The notes below the pieces were generated by a model. That model was given only the letters and a program-made list of their open reading frames with translations, did not search any database and was not told the origin of the DNA. Positions 1,169-23,782 of a DNA stretch of 24,687 bases are shown here, piece by piece. The stretch spans positions 1 to 24,687 of the IMG/VR virus record IMGVR_UViG_2711768042_000001. One strand, given 5' to 3'. The translations under genes and the position numbers were made by a program. The DNA is from a virus. Lineage: Duplodnaviria; Heunggongvirae; Uroviricota; Caudoviricetes. Each line of letters opens with the position of its first letter. Within the stretch, counting starts at the first letter, position 1.

Positions 1169-1843
1169 TTGAATACTGCCGCCAACTATGGCGGCTTTAT
1201 TTTGCATGATACTATTACCACAACGGTAACTATTACCACGGTGGTTATGATGCCTGCTGAACCTAAAGCCTATAAACGCAAATCAACGCAATTTAAGCCA
1301 CTAACAGCAATGCAGGAGGCTTATTGCCAGTCATACATCAAAACGCCTGAAAACCAGACTCAGGCAGCGATTAATGCAGGATTCTCCCCAAATACAGCGG
1401 CAGTTAAAGCCAGTGTCATGATGCGCGATGAACGCATTCAAAAACGGATTGCCGAGTTGATGGAGGAGCGCAACAAACGAATGCGCGTCAGTGCTGATTA
1501 CGTTCTCATGCGCCTGGTGGAGATCGACCAGATGGACGTGATCGACATCCTCAACGACGATGGGAGCCTTAAGCCAATCCGCGAGTGGCCGAAAATCTGG
1601 CGCACTACGCTTAGCGGCTTTGATCTGTCATCGACCATCATGAACATGAACGAGGATTCGATAGAGACAATCCTCAAAAAAATTAAATGGCCTGACAAGG
1701 TGAAGAACCTCGAACTGATTGGTAAGCACGTCGACGTCAACGCATTCAAAGAACGCCTGGATGTTAATGTGAATGTGACAATTGCTGATCGCATAGCAGC
1801 AGCCAGGAAGCGACTCAAAGAACGTCAGGATGGTAATCAGTGA
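1169..1843 (+). CDS. terminase small subunit (Terminase_2/P27-like)
   Basis: Sits immediately upstream of the large terminase with overlapping stop/start; region AMQEAYCQSYIKTPENQTQAAINAGFSPNTAAVKASVMMRDERIQKRIAEL resembles small-terminase DNA-binding domains. True start may be ATG 1247 (MMPAEPK). Confidence 0.6.
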   Translation: MNTAANYGGFILHDTITTTVTITTVVMMPAEPKAYKRKSTQFKPLTAMQEAYCQSYIKTPENQTQAAINAGFSPNTAAVKASVMMRDERIQKRIAELMEERNKRMRVSADYVLMRLVEIDQMDVIDILNDDGSLKPIREWPKIWRTTLSGFDLSSTIMNMNEDSIETILKKIKWPDKVKNLELIGKHVDVNAFKERLDVNVNVTIADRIAAARKRLKERQDGNQ

Positions 1844-3315
1844 CAGATACAGTGTTATCTCCTGAAGAGCAGTTGATCGAGGATATTGCAGGGTTTACTC
1901 ACGATCCGCTTGGTTATGCCCTCTATGCGTTCCCGTGGGGGGAAGAGGGGACTGAACTGGCACATGCTACTGGCCCACGTCAGTGGCAGGCTGATGCGTT
2001 CCGAGAGATACGTGATCACCTGCAGAATCCAGAGACGCGCTATCAGCCGCTTATGCTGGCACGCGCTTCTGGTCACGGTATTGGTAAATCCGCATTCATC
2101 TCAATGCTGATCAACTGGGGCATGTCCACTTGCGAGGATTGTAAGGTCGTGGTGACCGCCAACACCGACAACCAGCTACGAACGAAGACCTGGCCGGAAA
2201 TTATCAAGTGGTCGAACCTTGCTATCACGAAAGACTGGTTTACCTGTACCGCTACCGCGATGTACAGCAATGATCCTGGACACGACAAGCGGTGGCGAGC
2301 TGACGCAATCCCCTGGTCTGAGCACAACACTGAGGCATTCGCCGGACTACACAACGAGCGCAAACGCATCATCGTGGTGTTTGATGAAGCGTCGAACATT
2401 GCGGATCTGGTGTGGGAAGTTGCCGAAGGTGCGCTAACGGACGAAGACACTGAGATTATCTGGGTGGCGTTCGGAAACCCGACGCGTAATACCGGACGTT
2501 TCCGTGAATGTTTCCGCAAGTATAAACACCGCTGGAAAACTGCGCAGATTGACAGTCGGACGGTGGAAGGTACCAACAAACAGCAGTTGCAGAAATGGGT
2601 TGATGACTACGGGGAAGACAGCGACTTCGTTAAAATCCGTGTGCGTGGCATATTCCCTGATGCATCTGAATTGCAGTTTATCCCTACCGGTCTTACTGAC
2701 GAGGCAATGAAACGGGTGGTAACCGCTGCGCAGGTTGCACATGCTCCGGTGATAATCGGCGTTGACCCGGCATACTCCGGCGTTGATGACGCTGTGATAT
2801 ACCTGCGGCAGGGGCTACACAGTAAGGTGCTGTGGACTGGCAACAAGACTACCGACGATCTGATTATGGCGAAGCGTATCGCTGACTTTGAAGACCAGTA
2901 TCAGGCTGACGCGGTGTTCATCGACTTCGGTTACGGAACCGGTTTGAAGTCAATCGGTGACGGCTGGGGTCGTACATGGCAACTTGTTCCGTTCGGTGGC
3001 GCGTCTACTGACCCGCAGATGCTTAACAAGCGTGGGGAGATGTTCAACTCATGCAAGACATGGCTGAGGCTCGGCGGCATGCTGGATGACCGGGAAACAG
3101 CGGACGACCTGTCGACGGCAGAGTACAAAGTTCGCGTGGACGGTAAAATCGTTATCGAACCGAAGGAAGATATCAAAGAGCGACTTGGGCGTTCGCCGGG
3201 GAAAGGCGATGCGCTATTGCTGACGTTTGCTTTCCCGGTCTCGAAACGCATAAATATACCAGGACAGCAGAACCAGCAAGGCAAGGCCATCACAGATTAC
3301 GATCCCTATGCTTAA
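1840..3315 (+). CDS. terminase large subunit
   Basis: GTG start at 1840 overlaps terS stop (GTGA). 491 aa with P-loop-like ASGHGIGKSAF and Walker B-like IIVVFDEASNI; size and position typical of TerL. Confidence 0.85.
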   Translation: MTDTVLSPEEQLIEDIAGFTHDPLGYALYAFPWGEEGTELAHATGPRQWQADAFREIRDHLQNPETRYQPLMLARASGHGIGKSAFISMLINWGMSTCEDCKVVVTANTDNQLRTKTWPEIIKWSNLAITKDWFTCTATAMYSNDPGHDKRWRADAIPWSEHNTEAFAGLHNERKRIIVVFDEASNIADLVWEVAEGALTDEDTEIIWVAFGNPTRNTGRFRECFRKYKHRWKTAQIDSRTVEGTNKQQLQKWVDDYGEDSDFVKIRVRGIFPDASELQFIPTGLTDEAMKRVVTAAQVAHAPVIIGVDPAYSGVDDAVIYLRQGLHSKVLWTGNKTTDDLIMAKRIADFEDQYQADAVFIDFGYGTGLKSIGDGWGRTWQLVPFGGASTDPQMLNKRGEMFNSCKTWLRLGGMLDDRETADDLSTAEYKVRVDGKIVIEPKEDIKERLGRSPGKGDALLLTFAFPVSKRINIPGQQNQQGKAITDYDPYA

Positions 3316-3351
3316 TCCGCTAGTGGGGATAATGTCGTTGATATCCTCTGA

Positions 3352-3385
3352 TGAGGATAAAACAAAGCCAGCTCATCGGCTGGCT
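3352..3385 (-). terminator. intrinsic terminator for the minus-strand moron (hairpin AGCCAGC/GCTGGCT plus T-run on minus strand)
   Basis: 7-bp stem at 3366-3372/3379-3385 with 6-nt loop; minus-strand reading continues TTTGTTTTAT. Only a weak T-run on the plus side. Confidence 0.5.
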
Positions 3386-3389
3386 GTTT

Positions 3390-3401
3390 GTGACATGTCA
3401 C
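3390..3401. repeat. 12-bp perfect palindrome GTGACATGTCAC, copy 2 of 3
   Basis: Exact string between the terL stop region and the moron stop. Confidence 0.9.
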
Positions 3402-3405
3402 GGTG

Positions 3406-3825
3406 TTACTTAATGGCATCAAATCCAGCGTTGATGGCTTCCACAATATTGATGGCACTTGTTTTATCGAAGTGCCCATTCTGAATAAGCGCCGCATGCA
3501 GGCATTGTAACTTCATGTTGTATAAGTGTTCGCTCATGTAATCATTATCACTTTTTGCTTTAGCGTAAACAGCGCGAGAAATATCAAACACATCGCCTTT
3601 TTCCATTTCAGAACGTTGTGCTGTTATCCAGTCATGGAATGTAACGCTAGTACCATGGTCTTCGCTAAGAGTTAACCCGGCCAGTCCCTCACTCTGAATT
3701 ACTTCGTAATGCATTTCATTACCAGCAAAAACGCCATAAAAAACGCAGTCTTCAGCCTGAACGATACGAGAATATTTTAATGGCCATTCATTTAGATACT
3801 TAGCCAACATATCAATTGTTTTCAT
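3406..3825 (-). CDS. moron: hypothetical acidic cytoplasmic protein (139 aa)
   Basis: Only credible ORF on the minus strand here; ATG at 3825 preceded on the minus strand by AAGGTGAGA; bracketed by hairpin/T-run elements on both sides; opposite orientation to the structural genes. Confidence 0.6.
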   Translation of the reverse strand: MKTIDMLAKYLNEWPLKYSRIVQAEDCVFYGVFAGNEMHYEVIQSEGLAGLTLSEDHGTSVTFHDWITAQRSEMEKGDVFDISRAVYAKAKSDNDYMSEHLYNMKLQCLHAALIQNGHFDKTSAINIVEAINAGFDAIK

Positions 3826-3834
3826 GATCTCACC

Positions 3835-3860
3835 TTAAAAAAATGCCCGGCGACCCGGGC
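3835..3860 (-). terminator. terminator-like hairpin (GCCCGG-GTCG-CCGGGC followed by TTTTTTT on minus strand) just upstream of the moron RBS
   Basis: Plus-strand 3845-3860 GCCCGGCGACCCGGGC preceded by AAAAAAA; on the minus strand this is a GC stem followed by a U-run, lying between the tRNA and the moron. Confidence 0.5.
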
Positions 3861-4023
3861 GAACTGGAAGCAATGAGTTATGCCTTCCGTGGCTGTACTG
3901 GTTTACAGCATGAAGTCATCGCAATGGCGTCCTGCTGTAAAAAGGGCGGTAATAGTCCTTCAAGGGAAACTATCACCGCCAAGCACCTGGAACTTCTGGC
4001 ATCACGGTCCTTAGGCGTGATTC

Positions 4024-4100
4024 TGGCGTGGCATGCAGGATTCGAACCTGCGACCAACCGCTTAGAAGGCGGTTGCTCTGTCCAACTGAGCTAATGCCAC
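4024..4100 (-). tRNA. tRNA-Arg (anticodon UCU, decodes AGA), phage-encoded
   Basis: Reverse complement folds as a canonical cloverleaf: acceptor GTGGCAT/ATGCCAC, D-arm GCTC-AGTTGGACA-GAGC, anticodon arm ACCGC-CTTCTAA-GCGGT (anticodon TCT), T-arm GCAGG-TTCGAATC-CTGC, discriminator G and encoded CCA. Differs from E. coli argU as I recall it (from memory, not a comparison). Confidence 0.9.
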
Positions 4101-4422
4101 AACGCTGAGAGCACTTAGCCTGTTAAGGCGCCACACTTTGTCGCGGCTCCATAAATGCTCTCATCGTTGTACCCTCGTCTCTTCCGAGGCGTCACACCGA
4201 ATCGCCGGGATGGTGAATCCCCGTGCGCGGAATAAAACCGCTCGACTTGCACATTCCGGCTACCTGGTTCGTTTGCCCGAGCAAGGGAGGGTGCCCCTTA
4301 AACGTATCCAGACCGCTATCGGCGCATGTGCCATACGCCGTACTGCTCAAAATAAAAGCTCACTCCACCTGTTCAATTTAACGACAAGCCAGTCAGGTTA
4401 ATAACCGGAATGAACCATTTTC

Positions 4423-4437
4423 TTACCTGAAAGGTAA
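4423..4437. promoter_or_regulatory. palindromic motif TTACC-TGAAA-GGTAA (candidate operator), site 1 of 6
   Basis: Exact string; same motif class recurs at 20015, 20601, 22348 (imperfect), 23388, 23768, always intergenic. Confidence 0.4.
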
Positions 4438-4527
4438 TAATTAGTGCGTTAAATGTCAACTATCTACGATAAATAAATCATATGTGGTTAAATTGGTAAT
4501 AATTTAATTTCGTACGGAGTCATTGAT

Positions 4528-4734
4528 ATGTGCATGGGTAGCTCACCGTCAGTGCCTGCAACACCAGAAGTTCAGGCAGCACCACAGGAGCAGGATGCCG
4601 CCGTTGTTGATGCCCGCGACGAAGAAACTCGTCGCCGTCGCGCTGCTGCTGGTCGTAGTTCTACGCTGCTTACCGGTTCTCAGGGTGACACATCAACCGC
4701 TAATACCAGCGGTAAAACGCTGCTTGGTCAGTAA
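4528..4734 (+). CDS. hypothetical small protein (68 aa), low-complexity Ala/Thr/Ser/Gln-rich
   Basis: Start context CGGAGTCATTGATATG is nearly identical to the portal start context CGGAGTCATTGAAATG 220 nt downstream; sits directly upstream of the portal on the same strand. Confidence 0.4.
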   Translation: MCMGSSPSVPATPEVQAAPQEQDAAVVDARDEETRRRRAAAGRSSTLLTGSQGDTSTANTSGKTLLGQ

Positions 4735-4748
4735 CCGGAGTCATTGAA

Positions 4749-6428
4749 ATGGCGGAAACAACTAAAGAGCGATTGAACAAACAGTTCGCACAACTTGAAA
4801 GCGAGCGTCAGTCGTTCGAGCCGCACTGGCGCGAGTTGAGTGATTACATCAACCCGCGTGGTTCCCGCTTTCTGACTTCTGAGGTTAACCGTAACGATCG
4901 ACGCAATACACGCATTATTGATTCGACCGGGACTATGGCGGCGCGCACTCTTGCCAGCGGCATGATGTCAGGCATAACAAGCCCCGCCCGTCCGTGGTTT
5001 CGCCTGGCTACGCCAGATCCTGAAATGATGGACTATGGCCCTGTTAAGTTGTGGCTTGAGGCAGTTCAGAACCGCATGAACGATATGTTCAATAAGTCGA
5101 ATCTCTACCAGTCTCTTCCGCAGTTATACGGAAGCCTCGGCACATACAGCACTGGTGCAATGGCGGTGCTGGAGGATGACGAGGACATCATTCGCACAAT
5201 GCCATTCCCGATAGGCAGTTACTACCTGGCTAACTCACCTCGTGGCAGTGTGGACACCTGTTTTCGCAAGTTCTCTATGACTGTTCGTCAGCTTGTTCAG
5301 GAGTTCGGGCTAAATAACGTCAGCGAATCCGTAAAAAGCATGTGGGAAAGCGGCACCTACGAGAAGTGGATTGAAGTGATGCATTCGGTTTACCCGAACA
5401 TTGACCGCGATACATCGAAGCTGGATAGCAAGAACAAGCCATTCAAATCGGTTTATTACGAGGTTGGTGGCGATAACGACAAGTTGTTGCGTGAGTCCGG
5501 ATTCGATGAGTTTCCAATTATGGCTCCGCGCTGGGAAGTTAACGGCGAAGATGTTTATGGATCATCATGCCCGGGTATGCTGGCGCTTGGACCTGTTAAG
5601 GCATTGCAGCTTCTCCAGAAGCGCAAGTCGCAGTTGATTGATAAAGCCACCAATCCGCCGATGATTGCTCCGACTTCCCTCAAGAATCAGCGCGCCTCCC
5701 TTCTTCCTGGCGACATCACGTATATCGATCAGATTACTGGTCAGGATGGTTTCAGGCCTGCTTATCTGGTTAACCCCAGTACAGCAGATCTGGTGGCAGA
5801 CATTCAGGACACTCGTCAAATCATTAACAGTGCCTACTTTGTCGATCTGTTCATGATGTTGCAGAACATCAATACCCGTTCGATGCCTGTTGAAGCGGTG
5901 ATCGAAATGAAAGAAGAAAAACTTCTGATGTTGGGGCCGGTTCTGGAGCGTCTGAACGACGAATGTCTTAATCCTCTCATTGACCGCGCTTTCTCGATGA
6001 TGGTGCGTAAAAACATGCTGCCGCCCCCGCCTGACGCGATGGAAGGTATGCCCCTGAAGGTCGAATACATTTCCGTCATGGCTCAGGCGCAGAAGTCTAT
6101 CGGCCTGTCCAGTCTGGCGTCCACGGTTAACTTCATTGGTCAACTTGCGCAAGCGAAACCAGAAGCTCTCGACAAACTCAACGTTGATCAGGCAATCGAT
6201 GCATTCGCTGATATGTCCGGAGTGTCTCCAACCGTCATTGTTCCGCAGGAACAGGTTGAGCAGGCTCGCCAGCAACGGGCACAGCAGCAACAGCAGCAAC
6301 AAATGATGGCGATGGGGATGGCGGCGGCACAGGGTGCCAAGACGCTAAGCGAAGCTAAAACTTCGGATCCGAGTGTTTTGTCAGCTATGGCGAATGCAGT
6401 TAGTGGTCAGGGTGGGCAATCACAATGA
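4749..6428 (+). CDS. portal (head-to-tail connector) protein, T7 gp8-like
   Basis: 559 aa, follows terminase; Gln/Ala/Met-rich C-terminus (QQRAQQQQQQQMMAMGMAAAQGAKT...) resembles the characteristic C-terminus of T7-type connector proteins; RBS GGAG upstream. Confidence 0.8.
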   Translation: MAETTKERLNKQFAQLESERQSFEPHWRELSDYINPRGSRFLTSEVNRNDRRNTRIIDSTGTMAARTLASGMMSGITSPARPWFRLATPDPEMMDYGPVKLWLEAVQNRMNDMFNKSNLYQSLPQLYGSLGTYSTGAMAVLEDDEDIIRTMPFPIGSYYLANSPRGSVDTCFRKFSMTVRQLVQEFGLNNVSESVKSMWESGTYEKWIEVMHSVYPNIDRDTSKLDSKNKPFKSVYYEVGGDNDKLLRESGFDEFPIMAPRWEVNGEDVYGSSCPGMLALGPVKALQLLQKRKSQLIDKATNPPMIAPTSLKNQRASLLPGDITYIDQITGQDGFRPAYLVNPSTADLVADIQDTRQIINSAYFVDLFMMLQNINTRSMPVEAVIEMKEEKLLMLGPVLERLNDECLNPLIDRAFSMMVRKNMLPPPPDAMEGMPLKVEYISVMAQAQKSIGLSSLASTVNFIGQLAQAKPEALDKLNVDQAIDAFADMSGVSPTVIVPQEQVEQARQQRAQQQQQQQMMAMGMAAAQGAKTLSEAKTSDPSVLSAMANAVSGQGGQSQ

Positions 6429-13169: not shown

Positions 13170-13714
13170 TGTGCGATCCGGTTATTGCTGGTGGCGCAAT
13201 GCTCGCCATGAGTGGCATTCAGGCATACACCCAGTACCAACAGGGAAAGTATGCCTCGAAGGTTGCAGAAGCGAACGCAGATATAGCCACAGCTCAGGCA
13301 AATGATGCAATAAACAGAGGTAACGCTGAAGCTGAGCAACGGCGCAGAGAGACCCGACAGCGGCTTGGTACACAGGCGGCGACAATGGGGGCTACCGGCG
13401 CTGATTTATCTACAGGTAACGCGCTGGATATATTTGGCGACACTGCCCAGTTTGGCGCTCTTGATTCTCTGACGACGGTGAATAACGCGCAACGCGAGGC
13501 TTACGGTTATCAGGTTCAGGCTGCCAACTATAAAGCAGAAGCCAGTTCAGCCCGTAAACAGGGGAATGTGGGAGCAGCAACAACATTGCTCACTGCGCCT
13601 CTGAAGGCATATGGTGCGTACCAGATGTTTGGTGGGACGTGGAGTCCGTTTACTCAAAGCACTCCTGCGCCAATCGGGGCAGCAGCAGGAACCAGATTAC
13701 CCGGAGGATTATAA
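13169..13714 (+). CDS. putative internal virion protein (gp14 position), Ala/Gln-rich
   Basis: 181 aa, ATG overlaps upstream stop (TAATG); low-complexity helical composition. Confidence 0.45.
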   Translation: MCDPVIAGGAMLAMSGIQAYTQYQQGKYASKVAEANADIATAQANDAINRGNAEAEQRRRETRQRLGTQAATMGATGADLSTGNALDIFGDTAQFGALDSLTTVNNAQREAYGYQVQAANYKAEASSARKQGNVGAATTLLTAPLKAYGAYQMFGGTWSPFTQSTPAPIGAAAGTRLPGGL

Positions 13715-16422
13715 TGCCAGTCGTACCAACAGTATCCGGACGTCAGGTGCAAAGTCGTGGTGTGCAAACCGGTGGTTTTCAGACCTTCGATGTTCCTCAA
13801 GCAGGTCAGGTGCTGGCGAATGTCGCAGATCAGTATGCGGTGGCATATGGTGAAGCCAGGCAGAAAGCGAATGTTGCATTGTCTCAGGATGCCATCCTTC
13901 AGCTTAATCAGCGCAGCAATGAACGTCTTTATAACCCTCAAACCGGTTTTTATGCACAACAAGGCAAAAATGCGATTGGTAAGGGGCAAGAGTACATATC
14001 TGGATTTGATCAGGATGTGGAAGAAATAGCTGCTTCATTGACTGATGAAGCAGCAAGAAATATGTTTTTGCAACAAGCCAGAACACAGAAAATTCAGTTC
14101 AGTACTGGAGTTCTCAGACATGAGATAGGGCAGACAAATGCCTATGAAGATGAGCAATATCAGGCAACGAGAAAATTATGGATACAAAATGAAGCGGATG
14201 CCTGGAATGACCCGCAAACTGCCACTTTAGCCAGAAATTCCAGAATGGTAGCCATTGCTAGATATGGAGCTGCCAGGGGATGGTCACAAGAACGCATTCT
14301 GGAAGAAATAGAAAGTGATGATCGCCGTGCCACAGAAATGCGGGCGAAGAATTATGCCGCTGCCAATCCAGAAGGATGGCTAAATGGTCTGTTTCAGAAA
14401 AATGATTCTGGAGGCATGGACATGCGTGCCATACGCCTTGTTGAATCAGGTGATCGACATTTTAATCCTGATGGTAGTCTTCTTGAAGGACCGATAACAT
14501 CTTCTGGAGAGAGAGCCCAGGGGAAATACCAGTTAATGCCGGGCACAGGGAAAGAACTGGCGGCCAAGCGTGGCGTTAAATACAACCCTACGGACGAACA
14601 ACAGCATGAAATGCTCGCCAGTGACTATGTAAATCAACTGTATGGTAAGTACGGCTCCGAAATATTGACCGGAGCAGCATATAACTGGGGGATGGGTAAC
14701 GTGGATAAACTGATCGCCAAAGTCGGTGATCCACGTAAAGGTGAAATATCAGAAGAAGAATTTATCCGAAATCTTCCATCAGAAACACAAGGGTGGCTTT
14801 CCCGATATAGAAAAAATAAAACTGGAATGGATCCGCTGACTATTTATCAAATAGATAACCTTGCTAATAGTCAGATAGAAAAGCAAAGGAAGTTAATATT
14901 AGAACAGCTTGAGCCAGCTATTAATAACACCATGGCCCAGCTATATAACGGTGAGGTTCCAGATTATATACCGGCTCAGGAGACCATCATCAGGGGGTAT
15001 GGAAAAAACGCAGATAAAATAATCAATCAACTGGATATAGCGATTGATAACGCGAGAATATTCCAGGCAATTCAGTATTTGCCTCCTTCTCAGCAGCAAG
15101 AAGAAATGCAGAAAGTGAAGCCTGAGGTTAACGATCCTCACTATGCGTTAAAACTCGATGCTTACGGAAAATTGTCTGCATTGCTTCAGAGATCAAATGA
15201 AGCAATTCAGGCGCAACGGGATTCACGCAGATTTAATGAGGCGCTGACAATAGGTGAAAAATTAGACCCAAGCAACAAGTCAATGCAGAAAGCTGCTGAT
15301 TACACAGAAATGGCGCAGAACTTTCGTATTAATGATGCCTCCACTCATGATGGGGTTGTTCGGCTTGTGGCTCAGACTGGCATAATGCCTTCGCAGGTCA
15401 TCACGCAGCTTTCAGCAGTATCCCGATCCAGCAATCAGGAAGTGGTTAAAAATGCGGCGGAACTGTTTAGTCGGTTATATGAAACAGACAATGCATCTAT
15501 TGGAAATATGCCGAAGGATATGCAGGGTTTTTATCTGACTGTTAAGCAACTAACTGATGCAGGGATGTCTTCTGATGCTGCTATTGTGGAAGCGCAGAGT
15601 AAGACATACAACCAGACAGATGCACTAAGGGCGCAGCTCTCATCTGTTCAGAGTACAAGAGAATACAAAAAAGAGCGTGACAGCGCAGCCAATTCTGCTG
15701 TCAGCAATATGGCTCATTGGCTTCGCTGGGATCCGTCTGCGGATGACCAGACGCCGGAAGCAGCGCTCTTTCGCAATGACTATCAGATGCTGTATGACGT
15801 TAACTATCGCCTTGCTGGTGGTAACGCTGACGTAGCGAAGCAAATGACCAACCAGCAGATAGCCCGCACCTGGAGTATCAGCGAGGTCAACGGGGAAGCA
15901 CAGTTTATGAAATATGCACCGGAGGCGCTTTATCAATATGGGCCGTCAGGTTGGATTGCAGCGCAATGGAAGGCTGAAAAAGAAAAAATCATGTATGGCG
16001 ATGACTTACATAAACCGGCTCCTTCATTTAACCGACCTTCAACTGAGGCTGGTGCATTGGGACTGAATAAGCCACGCTCACTGGTTGGAGGTGAGTTGAT
16101 TCTCGTTCCTGACTTATCAACTCCGAGAGATAAGCTTTATTCAGTTGTGATCAGAACAAAAGATAAAAATGGTATTACGAGGGATGATTTATTTTATGAC
16201 AAGCATGGAAGACAGATGCGCTGGGGGCCATCACTAGAAGATTGGGAACCTTATAAGAAAATGCAGCAGGAACGGGAGCAGCACGAGCAGGAAGAAATTA
16301 TGCGTGGACAGGCTATACGAAACTTCAAAGACAAGCATCGCGCTCTGGATGAGCAGTATCAGCGCCTGCATAACGAACGTATGGACAAATTTAAAGATTA
16401 CTTTTCGTGGGGATCTAAATAA
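13714..16422 (+). CDS. internal virion (ejection) protein with soluble lytic transglycosylase domain
   Basis: ATG 13714 with GGAGG upstream (track ORF begins earlier at 13639, overlapping the previous gene). SLT motif block: RLVESGDRHFNPDGS...GKYQLMPGTGKELAAKRG...AAYNWGMGNV (catalytic E-S motif, QLMP, AYNxG). Confidence 0.8.
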   Translation: MPVVPTVSGRQVQSRGVQTGGFQTFDVPQAGQVLANVADQYAVAYGEARQKANVALSQDAILQLNQRSNERLYNPQTGFYAQQGKNAIGKGQEYISGFDQDVEEIAASLTDEAARNMFLQQARTQKIQFSTGVLRHEIGQTNAYEDEQYQATRKLWIQNEADAWNDPQTATLARNSRMVAIARYGAARGWSQERILEEIESDDRRATEMRAKNYAAANPEGWLNGLFQKNDSGGMDMRAIRLVESGDRHFNPDGSLLEGPITSSGERAQGKYQLMPGTGKELAAKRGVKYNPTDEQQHEMLASDYVNQLYGKYGSEILTGAAYNWGMGNVDKLIAKVGDPRKGEISEEEFIRNLPSETQGWLSRYRKNKTGMDPLTIYQIDNLANSQIEKQRKLILEQLEPAINNTMAQLYNGEVPDYIPAQETIIRGYGKNADKIINQLDIAIDNARIFQAIQYLPPSQQQEEMQKVKPEVNDPHYALKLDAYGKLSALLQRSNEAIQAQRDSRRFNEALTIGEKLDPSNKSMQKAADYTEMAQNFRINDASTHDGVVRLVAQTGIMPSQVITQLSAVSRSSNQEVVKNAAELFSRLYETDNASIGNMPKDMQGFYLTVKQLTDAGMSSDAAIVEAQSKTYNQTDALRAQLSSVQSTREYKKERDSAANSAVSNMAHWLRWDPSADDQTPEAALFRNDYQMLYDVNYRLAGGNADVAKQMTNQQIARTWSISEVNGEAQFMKYAPEALYQYGPSGWIAAQWKAEKEKIMYGDDLHKPAPSFNRPSTEAGALGLNKPRSLVGGELILVPDLSTPRDKLYSVVIRTKDKNGITRDDLFYDKHGRQMRWGPSLEDWEPYKKMQQEREQHEQEEIMRGQAIRNFKDKHRALDEQYQRLHNERMDKFKDYFSWGSK

Positions 16423-19400
16423 TGCCGTTCTATCCTGTATCTGAATCAAACAATAACGGATTTATTTCTGCTGGTCTCGCCATTCCTGAACCTGATGAAC
16501 AGAGTTTTGATGTGCATCCGCCAGAAGGTAAGAACCCTGAACCTCGTCCCAAAGAGCCTTCATTGCTTGCCGCAGCAATACGACAGAACAATATTCTGGC
16601 TGGTTTTTTCCGTCCTGCCAGACAGTTTGAACCGGTCGAGGGTTATAACCCATATGCTGATAAAAATGAGTTGCACGGTTATGAATACTGGGGGGCGAAA
16701 TTTGCAGATTCCCGATCGCCAGAGGAAACGGCGTGGATTAAGCAGCAGATAGATGATGAAAATGAAGATCGGCGTTTTATCTCTGAAGCAGGCTTAGCTG
16801 GTGGAATTGCCAGTGCAACAGCGATGCTTTTTGACCCGGTTACTGTTGCGTCAATGTTTATCCCAGGTGCTCAAGGAGGGGCACTGGCGCGTATTGGCTC
16901 ACAGATTGCGATTGGTGCTGCCGGTACTGCATTAAGCGAGGTTGTACTGAATAATCAGCAAATAACACGCTCATGGGGTGAAAGTGCCGCTCACGTTGCA
17001 GCGGGTGCGATGATGAGCGGCGTGTTTGCCAGTGCTGGTGTTGCGCTTTCGCCATCCGTCCGGGCTGCAGCCACACGTGAGGTTGCTGATGCTCTTGATA
17101 ATATGAGCATTACATCAGCGACTGACAGGGCTGCCGCTTCGCTTTCCGATGGTGGTAGTGTTGGTGCTATGAAAATTGATACAGCGACTCTGGATGATTT
17201 AACCCCTGTTTCCGGTGGGTGGGTTGGAAAGGCTGCATGGAAAGCAGGGAGCTATCTTACTCCTTTGACAAGGTTAATGGAGTCTCCGTCCAAGACGGTG
17301 CGAAAAACAACGCTGGAGTTAGCCGAAAATAATTTCACCCTTAAAGGAAATGAAAGGGGGATTGAAACACCGGTAGCTGTAGAAACCCGTACACGTGGAT
17401 GGCAGCGTGAAGAAGCTGCTGTTGTTGTCGGAAATAAACAGGCATACGCAAAGTATAAAGCTGATGGTGGTGACATGAGTTTTGATTCATTTCGTCAGCA
17501 GGTTGGGAATGCTATGCGAAGCGGTGATGTGCATGCTAATCCTGTTGTTCAGGAAACGGCGCAGGCGATGCGAACTGTATTAAATCGGGTGAAAGTTGAA
17601 ATGCAAAAGCTTGGTTTATTGCCGCCAGATGAAGAACTGAAAGCATTAGGCCAGGCAAGCTATTTCCCACGCATATATAAAGTTGGAAAAATAATCAGTG
17701 AACGCGATAAATTTCGACGTATTTTGGTTGACTGGTGGTCGAGAGGAAATAAAACACTGGATCCTGAGGATGCTGAAATTGCAGCGGATATCGTAATTAA
17801 TAAAATTACTGGTGCTAAGGTTCCACAGGATTTTGTCAGCGTATTTTCTGTAAAAGCCGCAGGTAGTACGAAAGAAAGAACATTAAATGTTCCTGATAGT
17901 CTTATCAGGGATTATCTTGAAAGTGATGTGAATTACGTGCTGCAACGTCATATCCGTGAAGCGGCAGCAGAGATTGAGTTGACGAGAACATTTGGCAAAC
18001 GAACTATGACTGAGCGTCTGCAATTAATTGAGGACGAATATGACAGTCTGTTACGGGAAGTGCCTGAAAAAATAAAGGCGAAATATGACGAAAGTGTGGC
18101 AAATCTGAAAGCACGTTATGAGAGCAATGGTGAAGTTGTTCCTCAGGGTAAACTCGATTCATTAATGCGAAAGTACGAAAAGGAATTACGGAAAGAACAG
18201 TCCAGACTTTCAAAATCAAGAGCAAATGATCTCAGAGACATAACAGCATTACGCGATCGTCTTGTTGGTACATATGGTATGCCTGATGATCCGTCTTCGT
18301 TTTTTGTTCGTGCTGGCGCTTTTCTGCGGGATGTGAACTTCACGACCAAACTCGGTGGAATGACAGTATCAGCTATTCCAGATCTGGCCAGAGGGGTTAT
18401 GGTTAATGGTTTCCGTAACACCATGAAAGGCTATGCTTCTCAGATATCCCAATCACCGGCATTTAAGGCCAGCAAAGAAGAGATGTTGAAGATGGGGATT
18501 GGATTGGAAACTGTACTACATTCACGTTCTCGTGCAATTGGTGATCTTGTTGACAGTTCTTCCAGGACAACAGCAGTCGAAGCAGGAATGGAGCGAATTA
18601 CTGATGCCTTCGGCAAGCTGACACTCATGGATCGATTTAATGACATAAACAAATCCATGAACGGAATGCTCACGTCAGACGGTATTTTGTCTGGTGCGTT
18701 TTCTGCACGTCGCATGGCAAAACTCGGTATCAACGACAATATGGCGGCGCGTATTCGCAGTGAGTTCGAGAAACATGGTGAGGTAATTGATGGATGGCAC
18801 ATTGGTAACTTTGATAAATGGGACGATCAGTACGTTGCCGGAGTATTCCAGTCAGCGGTTCTGAAAGACGTTAATAACACTATCATCACCCCCGGTATTG
18901 GTGACACACCTTTATGGGCGAGTACTCCAATGGGGCGAACGATATTTCAGTTTAAATCATTCACAACGGCTTCATACAACCGTGCGCTACTTGGTGGGTT
19001 ACAGGAAGGAACTGCGCAATTTTATTATGGCACTGCATTTCAGATTGCTCTTGGCTCACTGGTCTATGCGCTAAAAGAAGCATCGAAAGGGAAAAATGTT
19101 GACTGGTCACCAGAGAAGCTGGTGCTTGAGGGTATAGATAGATCCGGTATTCTTGGGCCATTGATGGAATATAACAACATGGCTGAAAAGGCTACTGGTG
19201 GTGCTGTTGGGCTGGGGGCTTTATTTGGCACTGGCACACAGTCTAGGTATGCCAGTCGTGGATTCGTAGGATCTCTATTCGGACCGTCATTTGGTCTTGC
19301 GGATAGCATCATTGATGTGACCGCAGGAGTGTTGAATGGTGATGCCGGTGATCGTATTGTGCATAATGTCCGAACCCTGATACCAGGCAATAACCTGTTC

Positions 19401-19445
19401 TGGATTGCGCCACTAATAAACCAAGTGGATCCGGTGATGCGTTAA
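16422..19445 (+). CDS. large internal virion/DNA-injection protein (gp16 position)
   Basis: 1007 aa, ATG overlaps upstream stop (TAATG); last gene of the + strand structural block before the accessory locus. Confidence 0.6.
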   Translation: MPFYPVSESNNNGFISAGLAIPEPDEQSFDVHPPEGKNPEPRPKEPSLLAAAIRQNNILAGFFRPARQFEPVEGYNPYADKNELHGYEYWGAKFADSRSPEETAWIKQQIDDENEDRRFISEAGLAGGIASATAMLFDPVTVASMFIPGAQGGALARIGSQIAIGAAGTALSEVVLNNQQITRSWGESAAHVAAGAMMSGVFASAGVALSPSVRAAATREVADALDNMSITSATDRAAASLSDGGSVGAMKIDTATLDDLTPVSGGWVGKAAWKAGSYLTPLTRLMESPSKTVRKTTLELAENNFTLKGNERGIETPVAVETRTRGWQREEAAVVVGNKQAYAKYKADGGDMSFDSFRQQVGNAMRSGDVHANPVVQETAQAMRTVLNRVKVEMQKLGLLPPDEELKALGQASYFPRIYKVGKIISERDKFRRILVDWWSRGNKTLDPEDAEIAADIVINKITGAKVPQDFVSVFSVKAAGSTKERTLNVPDSLIRDYLESDVNYVLQRHIREAAAEIELTRTFGKRTMTERLQLIEDEYDSLLREVPEKIKAKYDESVANLKARYESNGEVVPQGKLDSLMRKYEKELRKEQSRLSKSRANDLRDITALRDRLVGTYGMPDDPSSFFVRAGAFLRDVNFTTKLGGMTVSAIPDLARGVMVNGFRNTMKGYASQISQSPAFKASKEEMLKMGIGLETVLHSRSRAIGDLVDSSSRTTAVEAGMERITDAFGKLTLMDRFNDINKSMNGMLTSDGILSGAFSARRMAKLGINDNMAARIRSEFEKHGEVIDGWHIGNFDKWDDQYVAGVFQSAVLKDVNNTIITPGIGDTPLWASTPMGRTIFQFKSFTTASYNRALLGGLQEGTAQFYYGTAFQIALGSLVYALKEASKGKNVDWSPEKLVLEGIDRSGILGPLMEYNNMAEKATGGAVGLGALFGTGTQSRYASRGFVGSLFGPSFGLADSIIDVTAGVLNGDAGDRIVHNVRTLIPGNNLFWIAPLINQVDPVMR

Positions 19446-20014: not shown

Positions 20015-20029
20015 TTACCTTAAAGGTAA
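20015..20029. promoter_or_regulatory. palindromic motif TTACC-TTAAA-GGTAA, site 2 of 6
   Basis: Exact string 20-35 nt upstream of the 19994 start on the minus strand. Confidence 0.4.
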
Positions 20030-20590: not shown

Positions 20591-20886
20591 GCGCTTATCA
20601 TTACCTTTGCGGTAAATTTACATTGCATTCCTCTTGTGCCATAGTAATCGGGCACTGGCAAAATCCAGTGTCGGGATTGGTCTCCCGGATTACTAAGTGG
20701 CGCATACCACGCCAGACGTGGTTTTTTTATGCGTATAGCACAGTCATGCCAGAATTATGGTGGGCTGAATGGGGGTCCGAAAGGACGCCGGTACCACTTA
20801 GGCCGGTAAGACCAACTCCGTTCAGTTCACCACCATCTGATTGGTCTCAGCGGTGGTGATGTAATTCGCTAAGTGGAGACGCCATC
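20591..20886 (+). promoter_or_regulatory. structured ~295-nt leader upstream of the AntA-like gene (copy 1 of an inverted pair)
   Basis: About 85-90 percent identical to the reverse complement of 23122-23412; contains TTACC-TTTGC-GGTAA (20601-20615), two stem-loops, an intrinsic terminator, then complementary sites AGACCAA (20809-20815) and TTGGTCT (20841-20847) before the RBS GGAG. Confidence 0.7.
20651..20727 (+). ncRNA. candidate C4-like antisense sRNA, copy 1 (SL1 CACUGG-CAAAAU-CCAGUG; SL2 CGGGA-UUGGUC-UCCCG; terminator CCACG-CCAGA-CGUGG then U7)
   Basis: Three consecutive hairpins ending in a U-run, about 77 nt; SL2 loop UUGGUCU is complementary to AGACCAA in the downstream leader. 5' end not determined. 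Confidence 0.45.
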
Positions 20887-21543
20887 ATGAACGCTCAACT
20901 CATCCCCGTATTCAACGGCACTATATCTAACGAAACAGCCCTACTTTGTAATGCCCGCGATCTGCACGCTTTTTTAGGTGTTAAAAAGGTGTTTGCAGCA
21001 TGGATTACAAATCGCATTTCAGAATACGAATTCATTGAAAATCAAGACTATATTTTGCTTTCCAATTTGGGAAAGCAAACATCTGGTAGAGGCGGCCACA
21101 ACCGCAAAGAGTACCACCTCACCCTTGATACAGCCAAAGAGCTGGCGATGGTCGAGCGTAACGAAAAAGGTCGCCAGATACGACGCTACTTCATTGAATG
21201 CGAGAAACGTTTAAGACAACAAGAAACAAAGGTGGAGAAGGTCTTGTCAGGCTTCATGCCAGCCATTATGGAGGCGATCAAGCTGGAAGACAAAAAAGAA
21301 TACAGCGCCCAACTGAAGCCCGGCTACCGCAGCCTGATTCATTCGCCGTCTGGTGTTCTCGGCCTGACGGAGAACTCACTGCTGATGAATTTGCTGAACC
21401 AGTTACAGGAAGACGGGCATGATGTATCGGGCGCGGCAGCGGAGCTGACCACCATGTTCTGCTACATCGTCGGTGTGAGCAAATGCCTGCGTGATATCCA
21501 GACGCACGCGGAGTACATCAACGACAAGGCAGGGTTCTTCTGA
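20887..21543 (+). CDS. antirepressor, AntA-type N-domain plus shared C-terminal domain
   Basis: ATG with GGAG 8 nt upstream; N-domain ...[16 protein letters not shown]...[30 protein letters not shown] matches the AntA pattern; the C-terminal 80 aa are near-identical to the C-terminus of the 22435..23121 gene. Confidence 0.75.
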
Positions 21544-22347: not shown

Positions 22348-22362
22348 TCACCCGTAAGGTAA
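22348..22362. promoter_or_regulatory. imperfect palindromic motif TCACC-CGTAA-GGTAA, site 4 of 6
   Basis: One half-site mismatch relative to TTACC-N5-GGTAA; intergenic, about 140 nt upstream of the 22218 start. Confidence 0.3.
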
Positions 22363-22409: not shown

Positions 22410-22677
22410 AGGCACATCCCTGTGCCGCCGCCCGTCAGAAGACCCCTGCCTTGTCGTTGATGTATTCCGCGTGGGTCTGGATATCACGCAGGCATTTACT
22501 CACACCGACGATGTAGCAGAACATGGTGGTCAGTTCCGCCGCCGCGCCCGATACGTCGTGCCCGTCTTCCTGTAACTGGTTCAGCAGATTCATCAGCAGT
22601 GAGTTCTCCGTCAGGCCGAGAACACCAGACGGCGAATGAATCAGGCTGCGGTAGCCGAGCTTCAGTGGGGCGCTGTA
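22410..22677. repeat. inverted repeat arm B (antirepressor C-domain coding plus 3' flank)
   Basis: Reverse complement about 94 percent identical to 21301-21568. Confidence 0.8.
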
Positions 22678-23121
22678 GGTTTTGTTCTCTACCTTCATTG
22701 CCTGCATCACTGCTGATGCTGTGGCGCTGGCTACCTGGTCGGCAACCATCTTTATGCGTTCTTCCTGCGGGAGCGAGTTTTTAATGTAACTTCCGGTGCG
22801 GCGGATCTGAGGAAGAACCTCACCTGTAACCCATTTACGAAAGCGGTAGGGGGTAGTGCCTGGTGTCACCGCATCGCGGCAGCGGAGGATCAGTGTGTAG
22901 AGGCCTGACTCGTTGATAATATTGGTTTCGCCTTGACGGCCTAAGTTAAATTTAGCCCTTTCATCATCATCAAGAGATTTTATTGACATAGTGGGGTTTG
23001 TCAGTTGAAGAGCTTTAATAACGTCTTTGGCAACAAACCAAGGATTTCCATCAATAACAATGGCTCGAATGGTTGCTTCTGATTCAAAATGAAAAACAGA
23101 TGGGGTTACGTTAGCAGTCAT
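22435..23121 (-). CDS. antirepressor, Bro-N-type N-domain plus shared C-terminal domain
   Basis: ATG 23121 with AGGTGAT upstream (track ORF extends to 23274 but that N-terminal extension overlaps the conserved leader). Bro-N pattern: IDGNPWFVAKDVIKAL...NESGLYTLILRCR...YRFRKWVTGEVLPQIRRTGSY. Confidence 0.75.
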   Translation of the reverse strand: MTANVTPSVFHFESEATIRAIVIDGNPWFVAKDVIKALQLTNPTMSIKSLDDDERAKFNLGRQGETNIINESGLYTLILRCRDAVTPGTTPYRFRKWVTGEVLPQIRRTGSYIKNSLPQEERIKMVADQVASATASAVMQAMKVENKTYSAPLKLGYRSLIHSPSGVLGLTENSLLMNLLNQLQEDGHDVSGAAAELTTMFCYIVGVSKCLRDIQTHAEYINDKAGVF

Positions 23122-23274
23122 AGCGATCACCTTTGTAGTTAGGTTAATCACCACTACCGACGCCAATCGGTTGGTGGTGAACTGTGCAGGGTTGGCGTAA
23201 CCGGCTACAAAGGACCCGGCGCACCTTTCGGTGCCCCCACACAGCCCACCATAGAATAGGTGCGCTTTACACAT

Positions 23275-23352
23275 AAAAAAACCGCTTATGCGGCATATGT
23301 GCCTCTGTAGTAACTCGGGACGCCAATCCCGGCACTGGATTTTGCCAGTGCC
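23275..23352 (-). ncRNA. candidate C4-like antisense sRNA, copy 2 (SL2 loop UUGGCG; terminator CCGC-AUAA-GCGG then U7)
   Basis: Same three-hairpin architecture as copy 1; loop UUGGCGU is complementary to ACGCCAA (plus 23192-23198, read on minus) in its own leader. Confidence 0.45.
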
Positions 23353-23767: not shown

Positions 23768-23782
23768 TTACCTGAAAGGTAA
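23768..23782. promoter_or_regulatory. palindromic motif TTACC-TGAAA-GGTAA, site 6 of 6
   Basis: Exact string, identical core to site 1 (4423-4437). Confidence 0.4.

Follow-up and report, generated by a model that had tools for sequence, protein, structure and literature searches.

The stretch analysed here (the window: 24,687 nucleotides, IMG/VR record IMGVR_UViG_2711768042_000001) belongs to an epsilon15/phiV10-like (Uetakevirus) prophage of Escherichia coli, and our subject is the interval between its large terminase subunit gene (terL) and its portal gene, together with a structured RNA, here called X, that is encoded there on the minus strand. To the left lie terS (Pfam Terminase_2) and terL (so annotated in phiV10 and epsilon15), with the terL stop at 3315; on the other flank a 68-amino-acid (aa) gp3-like protein is encoded, followed by the portal protein (Pfam Head-tail_con, E 2.5e-187). 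Read along the minus strand, the interval contains a predicted promoter with its operator, X, a tRNA-Arg(UCU) gene, two modules resembling small RNAs (sRNAs), each with an intrinsic terminator, and a 139-aa open reading frame (ORF), which we refer to as the cargo ORF.

Many E. coli chromosomes carry prophages that match the 1.46-kb interval at 99% identity; phiV10, TL-2011b and related Uetakeviruses match it at 91–98%, and the matches to epsilon15, SPN1S, Tyrion and Klebsiella relatives are weaker. An alignment of the terL–gp3 intergenic region from eight relatives (phages of E. coli, Salmonella, Enterobacter and Klebsiella) gives the identical order of promoter, X, tRNA and sRNA modules in all eight, and the sole variable part is the protein-coding slot beside terL. 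The original prediction had described a tRNA and moron island inserted between terminase and portal, possibly a relic integration hotspot. Neither the insertion nor the hotspot is supported: the parts of the cassette keep their order throughout the genus, epsilon15, which lacks the tRNA, aligns as a deletion derivative of the conserved cassette, and no integrase, att-like repeat or tRNA fragment was noticed in the interval, although no dedicated repeat or att search was made. On comparative sequence grounds the interval represents a leftward transcription unit that the genus has conserved, and not a chance insertion or an integration relic, and the best explanation of its content is that most of its product is RNA rather than protein. 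Beyond the features first described, the analysis adds a second terminator (T2), the repeats of the operator palindrome, X itself, and the finding that the cassette is common to Salmonella, Klebsiella and Enterobacter relatives. The tRNA, which is annotated in phiV10-type phages, and the variable cargo gene are its known and ordinary components.

The structured RNA X and its relatives

The region beyond the tRNA (4101–4527) had been reported to lack a convincing ORF. This is correct insofar as only short, mechanically called ORFs occur there, and a coding reading was rejected on the indels and RNA-type covariation among the homologues; the region is not featureless, however, and its minus strand encodes a pseudoknotted RNA of about 245 nucleotides (nt). 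The core of X (4168–4345, minus strand), as defined by covariance model and covariation, comprises hairpin H1, helix H2 around a variable arm, an invariant segment GGUAGCCGGAAUGUGCAAG, a variable hairpin, H5 with a pseudoknot formed between its loop (CACC) and a downstream GGUG, and H6 with the loop GAAGAGA. The 3′ domain (4101–4167, minus strand) is lineage-specific and abuts the 5′ end of the tRNA; it consists of a closing stem, CAACGAUGAGAGCA with UGCUCUCAGCGUUG, around a variable insert. The cognate strands of this stem form a duplex of −23.4 kcal/mol compared with −18.6 kcal/mol for mismatched partners, and compensatory variants of it (GAGAGCA/UGCUCUC, AAGAGCA/UGCUCUU and AAGCGCA/UGCGCUC) are found among the relatives, while the P1 copy of X has no such 3′ domain. 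In some lineages the insert contains one or two T-arm-like hairpins, for example GGUUCGAUUCC and CUGGUUCAAUUCCAG, as seen in SPN1S (locus L004 in our numbering, approximately 1790–1910) and at loci L098, L102 and L131.

Covariation was evaluated on a hand-drawn structure of six helices (including two pseudoknots) and 29 pairs in an alignment of 53 sequences. Standard pairs form in 98.5% of the cells in the 29 pairs, and both-sided compensatory changes are present in 10 of them (120 cells). The covariation score is 0.263 compared with 0.110 for shuffled alignments, with none of 500 shuffles equalling it, and it falls to 0.065 or below, at least four-fold lower, when the pairing partners are slid by one to three columns; because the homologues are kin the shuffle statistics overstate significance, and the slide control is the fairer of the two and is still clear. 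The pseudoknot itself covaries, with a C-G pair replaced by A-U in five sequences. The strand follows from invariant U·G and G·U pairs, which would read A·C on the opposite strand, so that X is assigned to the minus strand of the window. The 19-nt GGUAGCCGGAAUGUGCAAG is invariant in X and is also found at 21 of 22 independently anchored loci; most homologues were collected through the exact 17-mer TTGCACATTCCGGCTAC, which inflates the invariance at that place, and the second anchor mitigates this. Pairing of GGUAGCCGGAAUGUGCAAG with the hairpin loops GCAC and CUUG is possible, both sides being invariant. The window copy scores 151 bits (E 2.8e-42) against the covariance model built from the alignment. 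Judged by its pattern of compensatory change, X is a real structured RNA family encoded on the minus strand.

X has not been catalogued in the sources that we covered. Rfam 15 at E≤10 returns no family for 4101–4422, and in 3300–4800 it returns just the tRNA and chance-level sub-threshold matches; the homologous regions of nine other loci likewise give no Rfam family for X. It is absent from the annotation of the detailed P1 record and of the GenBank phage records inspected, no annotated feature lies under it among the E. coli (RefSeq) matches listed, and no description of it was found in the searchable literature, including that on put RNAs, the P1 ban operon and phage RNA catalogues, with the paper on the HK639 put-like RNA outside that scope. 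As far as Rfam 15, the inspected annotations and the searchable literature reach, the family of X has not been described before; it is carried by very well-studied phages. Several 'hypothetical protein' ORFs have been annotated over the tRNA or over X and its leader, mostly on the opposite strand, namely phiV10p04 (2001–2252), mEp460_037 and mEp460_036 (2943–3311 and 3353–3496) and Tyrion gp54 (2324–2485). As genes these are contradicted by the indels and the covariation, and phiV10p04 is rejected also because it overlaps the tRNA on the opposite strand; they are probably mis-annotations.

A scan with the 17-mer recovered at least 120 IMG/VR contigs, representing 109 distinct versions of X in 44 clusters below 90% identity, and a scan of species-representative genomes with the second anchor gave 23 loci, nearly all in Enterobacteriaceae apart from one in Acidovorax that looks like a chance match. 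X is present in 83 phage records and in 1840 of 5426 complete E. coli genomes (about one third), with up to four copies per genome; 554 places are on plasmids, those listed being about 90–95 kb in size and having P1-type matches. The covariance model detects X in P1, SopranoGao, BUCT708 and lambda-like phages at 121–166 bits. It also detects, at 42 bits, a remnant in epsilon15 (2222–2295), which retains just the 5′ third of X. The epsilon15 deletion joins a UUCCCUUGAUGCU motif in the variable arm of X to an identical motif in the loop of the hairpin of terminator T1, which suggests that it arose by recombination between the two UUCCCUUGAUGCU copies. The epsilon15 record labels the remnant an 'RNaseIII' site.

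Outside the Uetakeviruses, X is found in two other settings. In P1 it is part of the ban operon, which C1 controls: it begins within a few bases downstream of trnI and is followed by ban, and the same operon includes two more tRNAs and a stretch annotated as 'dicF-like region'. The lambda-like carriers include mEp460, mEp390, cdtI, 2H10, 1720a-02, Shiga toxin (Stx) phages of the Stx2a and Stx2c types, and a Stenotrophomonas phage. In lambda-like phages X is directly downstream of a cI-like repressor gene, on the same strand and about 45–90 nt past an operator-bearing promoter, and is the first element after the promoter PL, where lambda has nutL-N and HK022 has putL. The leaders that contain it are about 650–780 nt long, have no ORF, and contain an intrinsic terminator ahead of the first gene, whose acidic protein product does not resemble N. 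No N-like ORF was found ahead of the first terminator in the lambda-like leaders inspected, and the mEp460 record annotates a Q-like regulator and no N. X occurs in these phages without a tRNA, and the tRNA slot is occupied by a cloverleaf-like domain of about 135 nt closed by GUUGUGGUGA and UCACCACAAC. In mEp460 (L130, 3236–3375), and also at L131 and L158, this domain is built from an 11-bp stem resembling an acceptor stem, two hairpins that recall a D arm (GCGCA-GGCUGA-UGCGC) and a T arm, and a long arm in the centre; ARAGORN makes no tRNA call on it, and it is possibly an RNase P processing signal.

Two features of these contexts bear on function. First, a hairpin followed by a U-run is present within 900 nt downstream of 102 of the 115 distinct X copies, compared with 41% of random windows from the same loci, as called by an energy-based heuristic that replaced a stricter one that under-called sites. 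Secondly, the three kinds of context inspected have no protein gene in common, from which we infer that any partner of X would have to be a host factor.

Promoter, dispersed operator and rightward block

The predicted leftward promoter, PX, was read from the sequence as a −35 hexamer TTGACA (4454–4459, minus strand) and, at a spacing of 17 nt, a putative −10 hexamer TACCTT (4431–4436, minus strand) that lies within the operator and matches the consensus at three of six positions. TTGAC[AC] is kept at the −35 position in the E. coli, Salmonella, Klebsiella and Enterobacter relatives, and other lineages have an equivalent TTGACx-N17-TAxxxT layout 50–90 nt upstream of X. PX is accordingly described here as a predicted sigma-70-like promoter overlapped by an operator. 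Between the promoter and X is a variable 5′ leader (4346–4422, minus strand) that is poorly conserved between lineages and contains a weak hairpin (4408–4389).

The palindrome TTACC-N5-GGTAA noted originally in this region is at 4423–4437 (TTACCTGAAAGGTAA), and a sequence repeat search showed that it is one of eight matches with at most one mismatch in the window, compared with 0.4 expected by chance. Six copies are outside terS, five exact and one with a mismatch: the other exact copies start at 20015, 20601, 23388 and 23768, and the one-mismatch copy is at 22348–22362. The 15-mer at 23768–23782 is identical to that at 4423. The remaining two matches, one exact and one with a mismatch, are inside terS (1215–1247), and may be due to chance or be regulatory. 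The homologous site in the epsilon15 record is annotated 'repressor' (predicted) and 'IHF'. With the same palindrome present at several promoters, TTACC-N5-GGTAA is the dispersed operator of this phage, and a repressor is predicted to bind it; copies head both the X unit and two isrK/C4-antirepressor units. In P1, as judged from its record and general knowledge, one repressor likewise serves dispersed operators, including those of ban and immI. The two isrK and C4 antisense-RNA pairs score above the Rfam gathering scores (20652–20837, plus strand; 23170–23351, minus strand), with the operator copies at 20601 and 23388 directly upstream and antirepressor-type genes following (AntA, 20887–21543; Bro-N, 22435–23274). 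The two units are convergent, in an arrangement like that of P1 immI.

To the right of PX, an AT-rich block and the 5′ untranslated region ahead of gp3 and the portal gene occupy 4471–4527 (plus strand). Its first part, AAATAAATCATATGTGGTTAAATTGGTAATAATTTAA (4471–4507, plus strand), is nearly invariant in the eight relatives, phages of four host genera, and the alignment indicates that 4471–4527 is probably a rightward promoter or regulatory region for the head genes, divergent from PX. A CATATGTGGTT string near the operator at 23768 resembles part of the 4471–4507 block.

Possible roles of X

We propose that the interval is a conserved, repressor-controlled leftward unit with mainly RNA products, in which X acts on elongation, and we give this reading as a whole an even chance. 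The unit would be silent in the lysogen and fire on derepression. The precursor would be cut at the tRNA by RNase P and by 3′ processing to release X, the tRNA and the sRNAs; the tRNA would aid decoding of AGA and AGG codons, which are enriched in large virion genes; and X, nascent or released, would act on RNA polymerase during transcription, or on the Rho/Nus partners of the enzyme, such that the long untranslated leader could be completed and the terminators read through to the cargo gene. There are parallels for such a layout in the P1 ban leader, in immI (c4) of P1 and P7, and in CI of P4, which are also repressor-controlled units in which a long leader is processed into noncoding RNAs, the first products, and tRNAs or tRNA-like substrates of RNase P serve as punctuation. 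The P1 ban leader even shares parts with the window unit (a dicF-like module, tRNAs and X), although the order differs, with the sRNA module first in P1 and X last. C4 and CI, unlike X, are short antisense regulators with known targets.

The action of X is the weakest step of this scheme, and would be similar in kind to that of HK022 put and Bacillus EAR. It is proposed because X comes first after PL in phages without an annotated N, because the contexts share no partner protein, and because terminators are enriched downstream; a role in antitermination or elongation control specifically is a tentative suggestion that we place somewhat below even. EAR is a structured, pseudoknotted intra-operon RNA that promotes read-through of downstream terminators, and provides an analogy for the mid-operon position of X in P1, although it is from a different phylum and has no sequence or structure match (the X region is negative in Rfam), and the role of X is a predicted one. 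The comparison with put is closer in position. The putL and putR RNAs of HK022 and the putL-like RNA of HK639 are also phage RNAs just past a repressor-controlled early promoter in lambda-like phages without N; the lambda-like carriers of X, which have no annotated N, share this position, and X in the window is about 80 nt past its predicted start. Neither put nor X has an evident dedicated phage protein, and both have terminators downstream. The put RNAs counter termination by binding the zinc-binding domain of the RNA polymerase β′ subunit. A put RNA is about 70 nt long, has two stem-loops, and is active also when cut from the transcript (PMC9378689). Unlike put, the core of X spans about 165–185 nt and contains five or more helices besides a pseudoknot, each phage stretch searched has a single X and no counterpart of putR in the right operon, and X occurs also in mid-operon in P1. 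By eye the base of H1 (ACGGCG...CAUGCGUCG) looks like put stem I; the best nhmmer match is in the HK639 putL-like RNA at an E value of about 2, with none in HK022 putL. That X would be a third RNA-only type of antiterminator after put and EAR, working without a dedicated phage protein, we consider possible and rather unlikely.

Several observations weigh against an elongation role for X in a repressor-controlled unit. First, PX and the function of its operator are predictions: a simple promoter scan flags no promoter-like site in 3200–4800, PX included, which we attribute to its weak −10 hexamer. Secondly, the covariance model of X finds nothing at E≤10 in HK022 or HK639, and X as a member of the put family was rejected, since the resemblance of H1 to stem I is supported neither by this model nor by nhmmer. 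Thirdly, in P1 a terminator-ended sRNA-like module is upstream of X and just ban and dbn are downstream; X cannot explain read-through of that terminator because the terminator precedes it. Fourthly, there is no second copy of X in the window or in the 22.5-kb mEp460 stretch, where the sole X is that of the left operon. Fifthly, epsilon15 is annotated as a complete phage genome although it lacks the tRNA and about two thirds of X, so that lytic growth probably does not require them, at least in its host. Sixthly, the tRNA promoter is apparently early and the AGA-rich genes are late. Lastly, tRNAs flank X on one or the other side, which fits an excised, free-standing and trans-acting X equally well.

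The last point leads to the strongest alternative, which we regard as unlikely and yet worth serious consideration: X could be a stable trans-acting RNA, excised at the flanking tRNA or tRNA-like element, that binds or sequesters a host component early in the lytic cycle, for example the translation machinery, a defence protein, an RNase or an RNA chaperone. X abuts the tRNA at its 3′ side in the window and starts just past trnI in P1, and the tRNA slot of the lambda-like phages holds the cloverleaf-like domain; the invariance of the 19-nt GGUAGCCGGAAUGUGCAAG suggests sequence-specific recognition by a conserved partner; and the complex, pseudoknotted fold agrees with such a role, as does the P1 copy, which, lying in mid-operon past a terminator, is placed more like an RNA gene than like a promoter-proximal antiterminator. 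That same P1 copy has neither a promoter nor a terminator of its own, however, and no candidate target was found. A trans-acting X also leaves the fixed first position after PL in phages without an annotated N unexplained, and excision does not discriminate between it and an antiterminator, since put works when cut out too (PMC9378689).

Alternatively, X could be a sensor leader, riboswitch-like or protein-binding, that responds to a metabolite or to a phage or host protein and decides between stopping at the sRNA terminators and continuing into the cargo or early genes. A pseudoknotted fold that is rich in invariant nucleotides and placed ahead of terminators is in keeping with this. The loop of lambda nutL boxB is GAAGA, which the GAAGAGA loop of H6 loosely resembles, and hairpins of the form CCGG-GAAAGA-CCGG are present in the leaders of BUCT708 and mEp390, with copies located in BUCT708 (L156, approximately 2372–2392 and 2812–2870) and at L157 (2783–2803); they resemble H6 and boxB, which hints at a hairpin-binding protein. 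The isolation of the mEp phage collection as Nus-dependent (PMC11893012) also counts in favour of a sensor. Even so we think it improbable: X and the terminators are separated by about 300 nt that include an entire tRNA or tRNA-like domain, an overlapping expression platform is lacking, no riboswitch family matches in Rfam, and the leaders inspected have no N-like ORF. A nut/boxA reading of the closing stem was rejected, as the UGCUCUC of its 3′ strand, which recalls boxA (YGCUCUUUA), changes freely in sequence and does so in step with its pairing partner, as a helix would, with no N-like ORF to accompany it.

X sits at regulatory key points, in the C1-controlled ban operon of P1 and proximal to PL in lambda-like phages, including Stx2a- and Stx2c-converting ones, and could make testable both how such phages pass their early terminators and how early expression is wired in Stx phages. 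Its unit raises the prospect of tRNAs as punctuation that releases several regulatory RNAs from one early precursor. If X were an RNA-only antiterminator, it would explain expression of the leftward early operon in lambda-like phages without N, and it would be a new type that has gone unannotated in P1, in many prophages of the lambda-like and Stx kinds, and in one in three complete E. coli genomes.

The tRNA, sRNA-like modules and cargo gene

The tRNA-Arg(UCU) gene is at 4024–4100 on the minus strand, where it had been predicted, with anticodon TCT and an encoded CCA, and is the one tRNA called by ARAGORN in the whole window; its Rfam score of 73.3 bits (RF00005, E 1.5e-14) is well above the gathering score of 29 and places it in the family. 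A tRNA-Arg occupies the equivalent position in phiV10, SPN1S and Klebsiella relatives, and is already annotated there in RefSeq and several GenBank records. Identity to a host gene had been named as the finding that would count against phage cargo. The best match reaches just 85.9% identity over 71 nt in 5004 of 5515 E. coli records, and copies at least 95% identical are present in about 505 records (about 9%), which fits prophage carriage; by these sequence comparisons the tRNA is phage cargo and not a host gene. E. coli uses on average roughly 2 AGA and 1 AGG per 1000 codons. In the 23 ORFs of the window the values are 6.7 and 3.9 per 1000, an enrichment of about three-fold relative to these host values, and 39 of the 73 AGA and AGG codons are in two large virion genes (13639–19445). 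Decoding of these codons by the phage tRNA is plausible from this usage, and the translational tuning first suggested stands to that extent, with the reservation about the timing of expression given above. The argN and argO genes of Stx phages and the tRNA-Arg of phiV10-like phages are likewise rare-codon tRNAs on temperate coliphages, and the window tRNA is unlike those in being embedded in a noncoding precursor between X and the sRNA modules. Directly 3′ of it is a hairpin, AUCACG-loop-CGUGAU (4001–4021, minus strand), that is present in every relative having the region, and a similar hairpin follows X in the Stenotrophomonas phage BUCT708.

The two sRNA-like modules come next, both ending in terminators located by a terminator scan and both having a DicF/RprA-type layout of a short seed, a UUGGCGG/UUUGCCC hairpin and a U-run. 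Module A (3940–3991, minus strand) consists of a DicF-like seed and terminator T1, whose GC stem (3980–3945) and U-run correspond to the hairpin originally reported 3′ of the tRNA. Its score against DicF (RF00039) is 18.5 bits (E 0.47), below the gathering score of 48, and it is not assigned to that family; the likeness of its 5′ part (UUCCAGGUGC-UUGGCGGU compared with UUCUGGUGAC...UUUGGCGGU in DicF) is limited to seed-proximal bases and the terminator layout. In other lineages its position is occupied by modules of the same kind with different seeds, including RprA-like ones. Module B (3838–3939, minus strand) is strongly conserved across genera and ends in T2, with a six-GC-pair stem at 3860–3845 followed by U7 (GCCCGG-GUCG-CCGGGC); its 3′ part, GCUUCCAGUUCGCCC-hairpin-U7, resembles the annotated 'dicF-like region' of P1. 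In BUCT708 (L156, 2631–2750) the 3′ part of the module reads UUGCUGUGUGUAGUCUUKGCC-hairpin-U-run and is near to the host sRNA RprA, and RprA-like modules are also found at L157 (approximately 2900–2970), L095 and L075. The RprA-like module scores 50 bits against a gathering score of 70 and is sub-threshold.

The 139-aa cargo ORF (3406–3825, minus strand) was identified from the sequence and its translation and has, as first described, its own Shine-Dalgarno sequence, AAGGTGA, a few bases ahead of its ATG, and a terminator downstream. That hairpin (3385–3366), between the terL stop and the stop of the cargo ORF, is called on the minus strand by the scan, and phiV10 annotates a rho-independent terminator at the equivalent of 3366–3385 on the plus strand. 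The ORF matches phrog_4846, a PHROGs family of unknown function, and has no match in Pfam, PADLOC or NCBIfam, nor in PDB by profile search; a search of 5.8 billion proteins yields 101 homologues, all hypothetical or nameless, of which those with named sources are from Enterobacteriaceae. Its AlphaFold2 model is poor (predicted local distance difference test, pLDDT, 62; predicted template modelling score, pTM, 0.33). In relatives the slot holds unrelated ORFs of 64 to 263 aa, sometimes two of them. The term moron, used for this gene in the original prediction, is apt in that the cargo is exchangeable and followed by a terminator, but not in respect of a promoter of its own: T2 ends 19 nt ahead of the cargo ATG, which leaves no room for one, and the scan finds none. 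The same 19-nt gap means that the cargo ORF is reachable just by read-through of T1 and T2.

The view that the interval is an acquired tRNA and moron island at a former integration hotspot, with the rare-codon tRNA as its sole function and the rest spacer, agrees with a real, phage-borne tRNA, with the codon enrichment and with the changing protein slot, and is nonetheless the least probable of those considered, since the cassette order is conserved in Uetakeviruses of four host genera, conservation and covariation within the interval peak in the supposed spacer, which also occurs without any tRNA in lambda-like phages, the tRNA is intact with no integration feature noticed nearby (again without a dedicated search), and the ORF has no promoter of its own; its 'spacer' and 'island' parts are already contradicted. 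In the Enterobacter phage Tyrion, an int-alpA RNA match (RF02996) is located between the two cargo ORFs (1424–1488, minus strand), with a score of 44 bits compared with a gathering score of 35.8.

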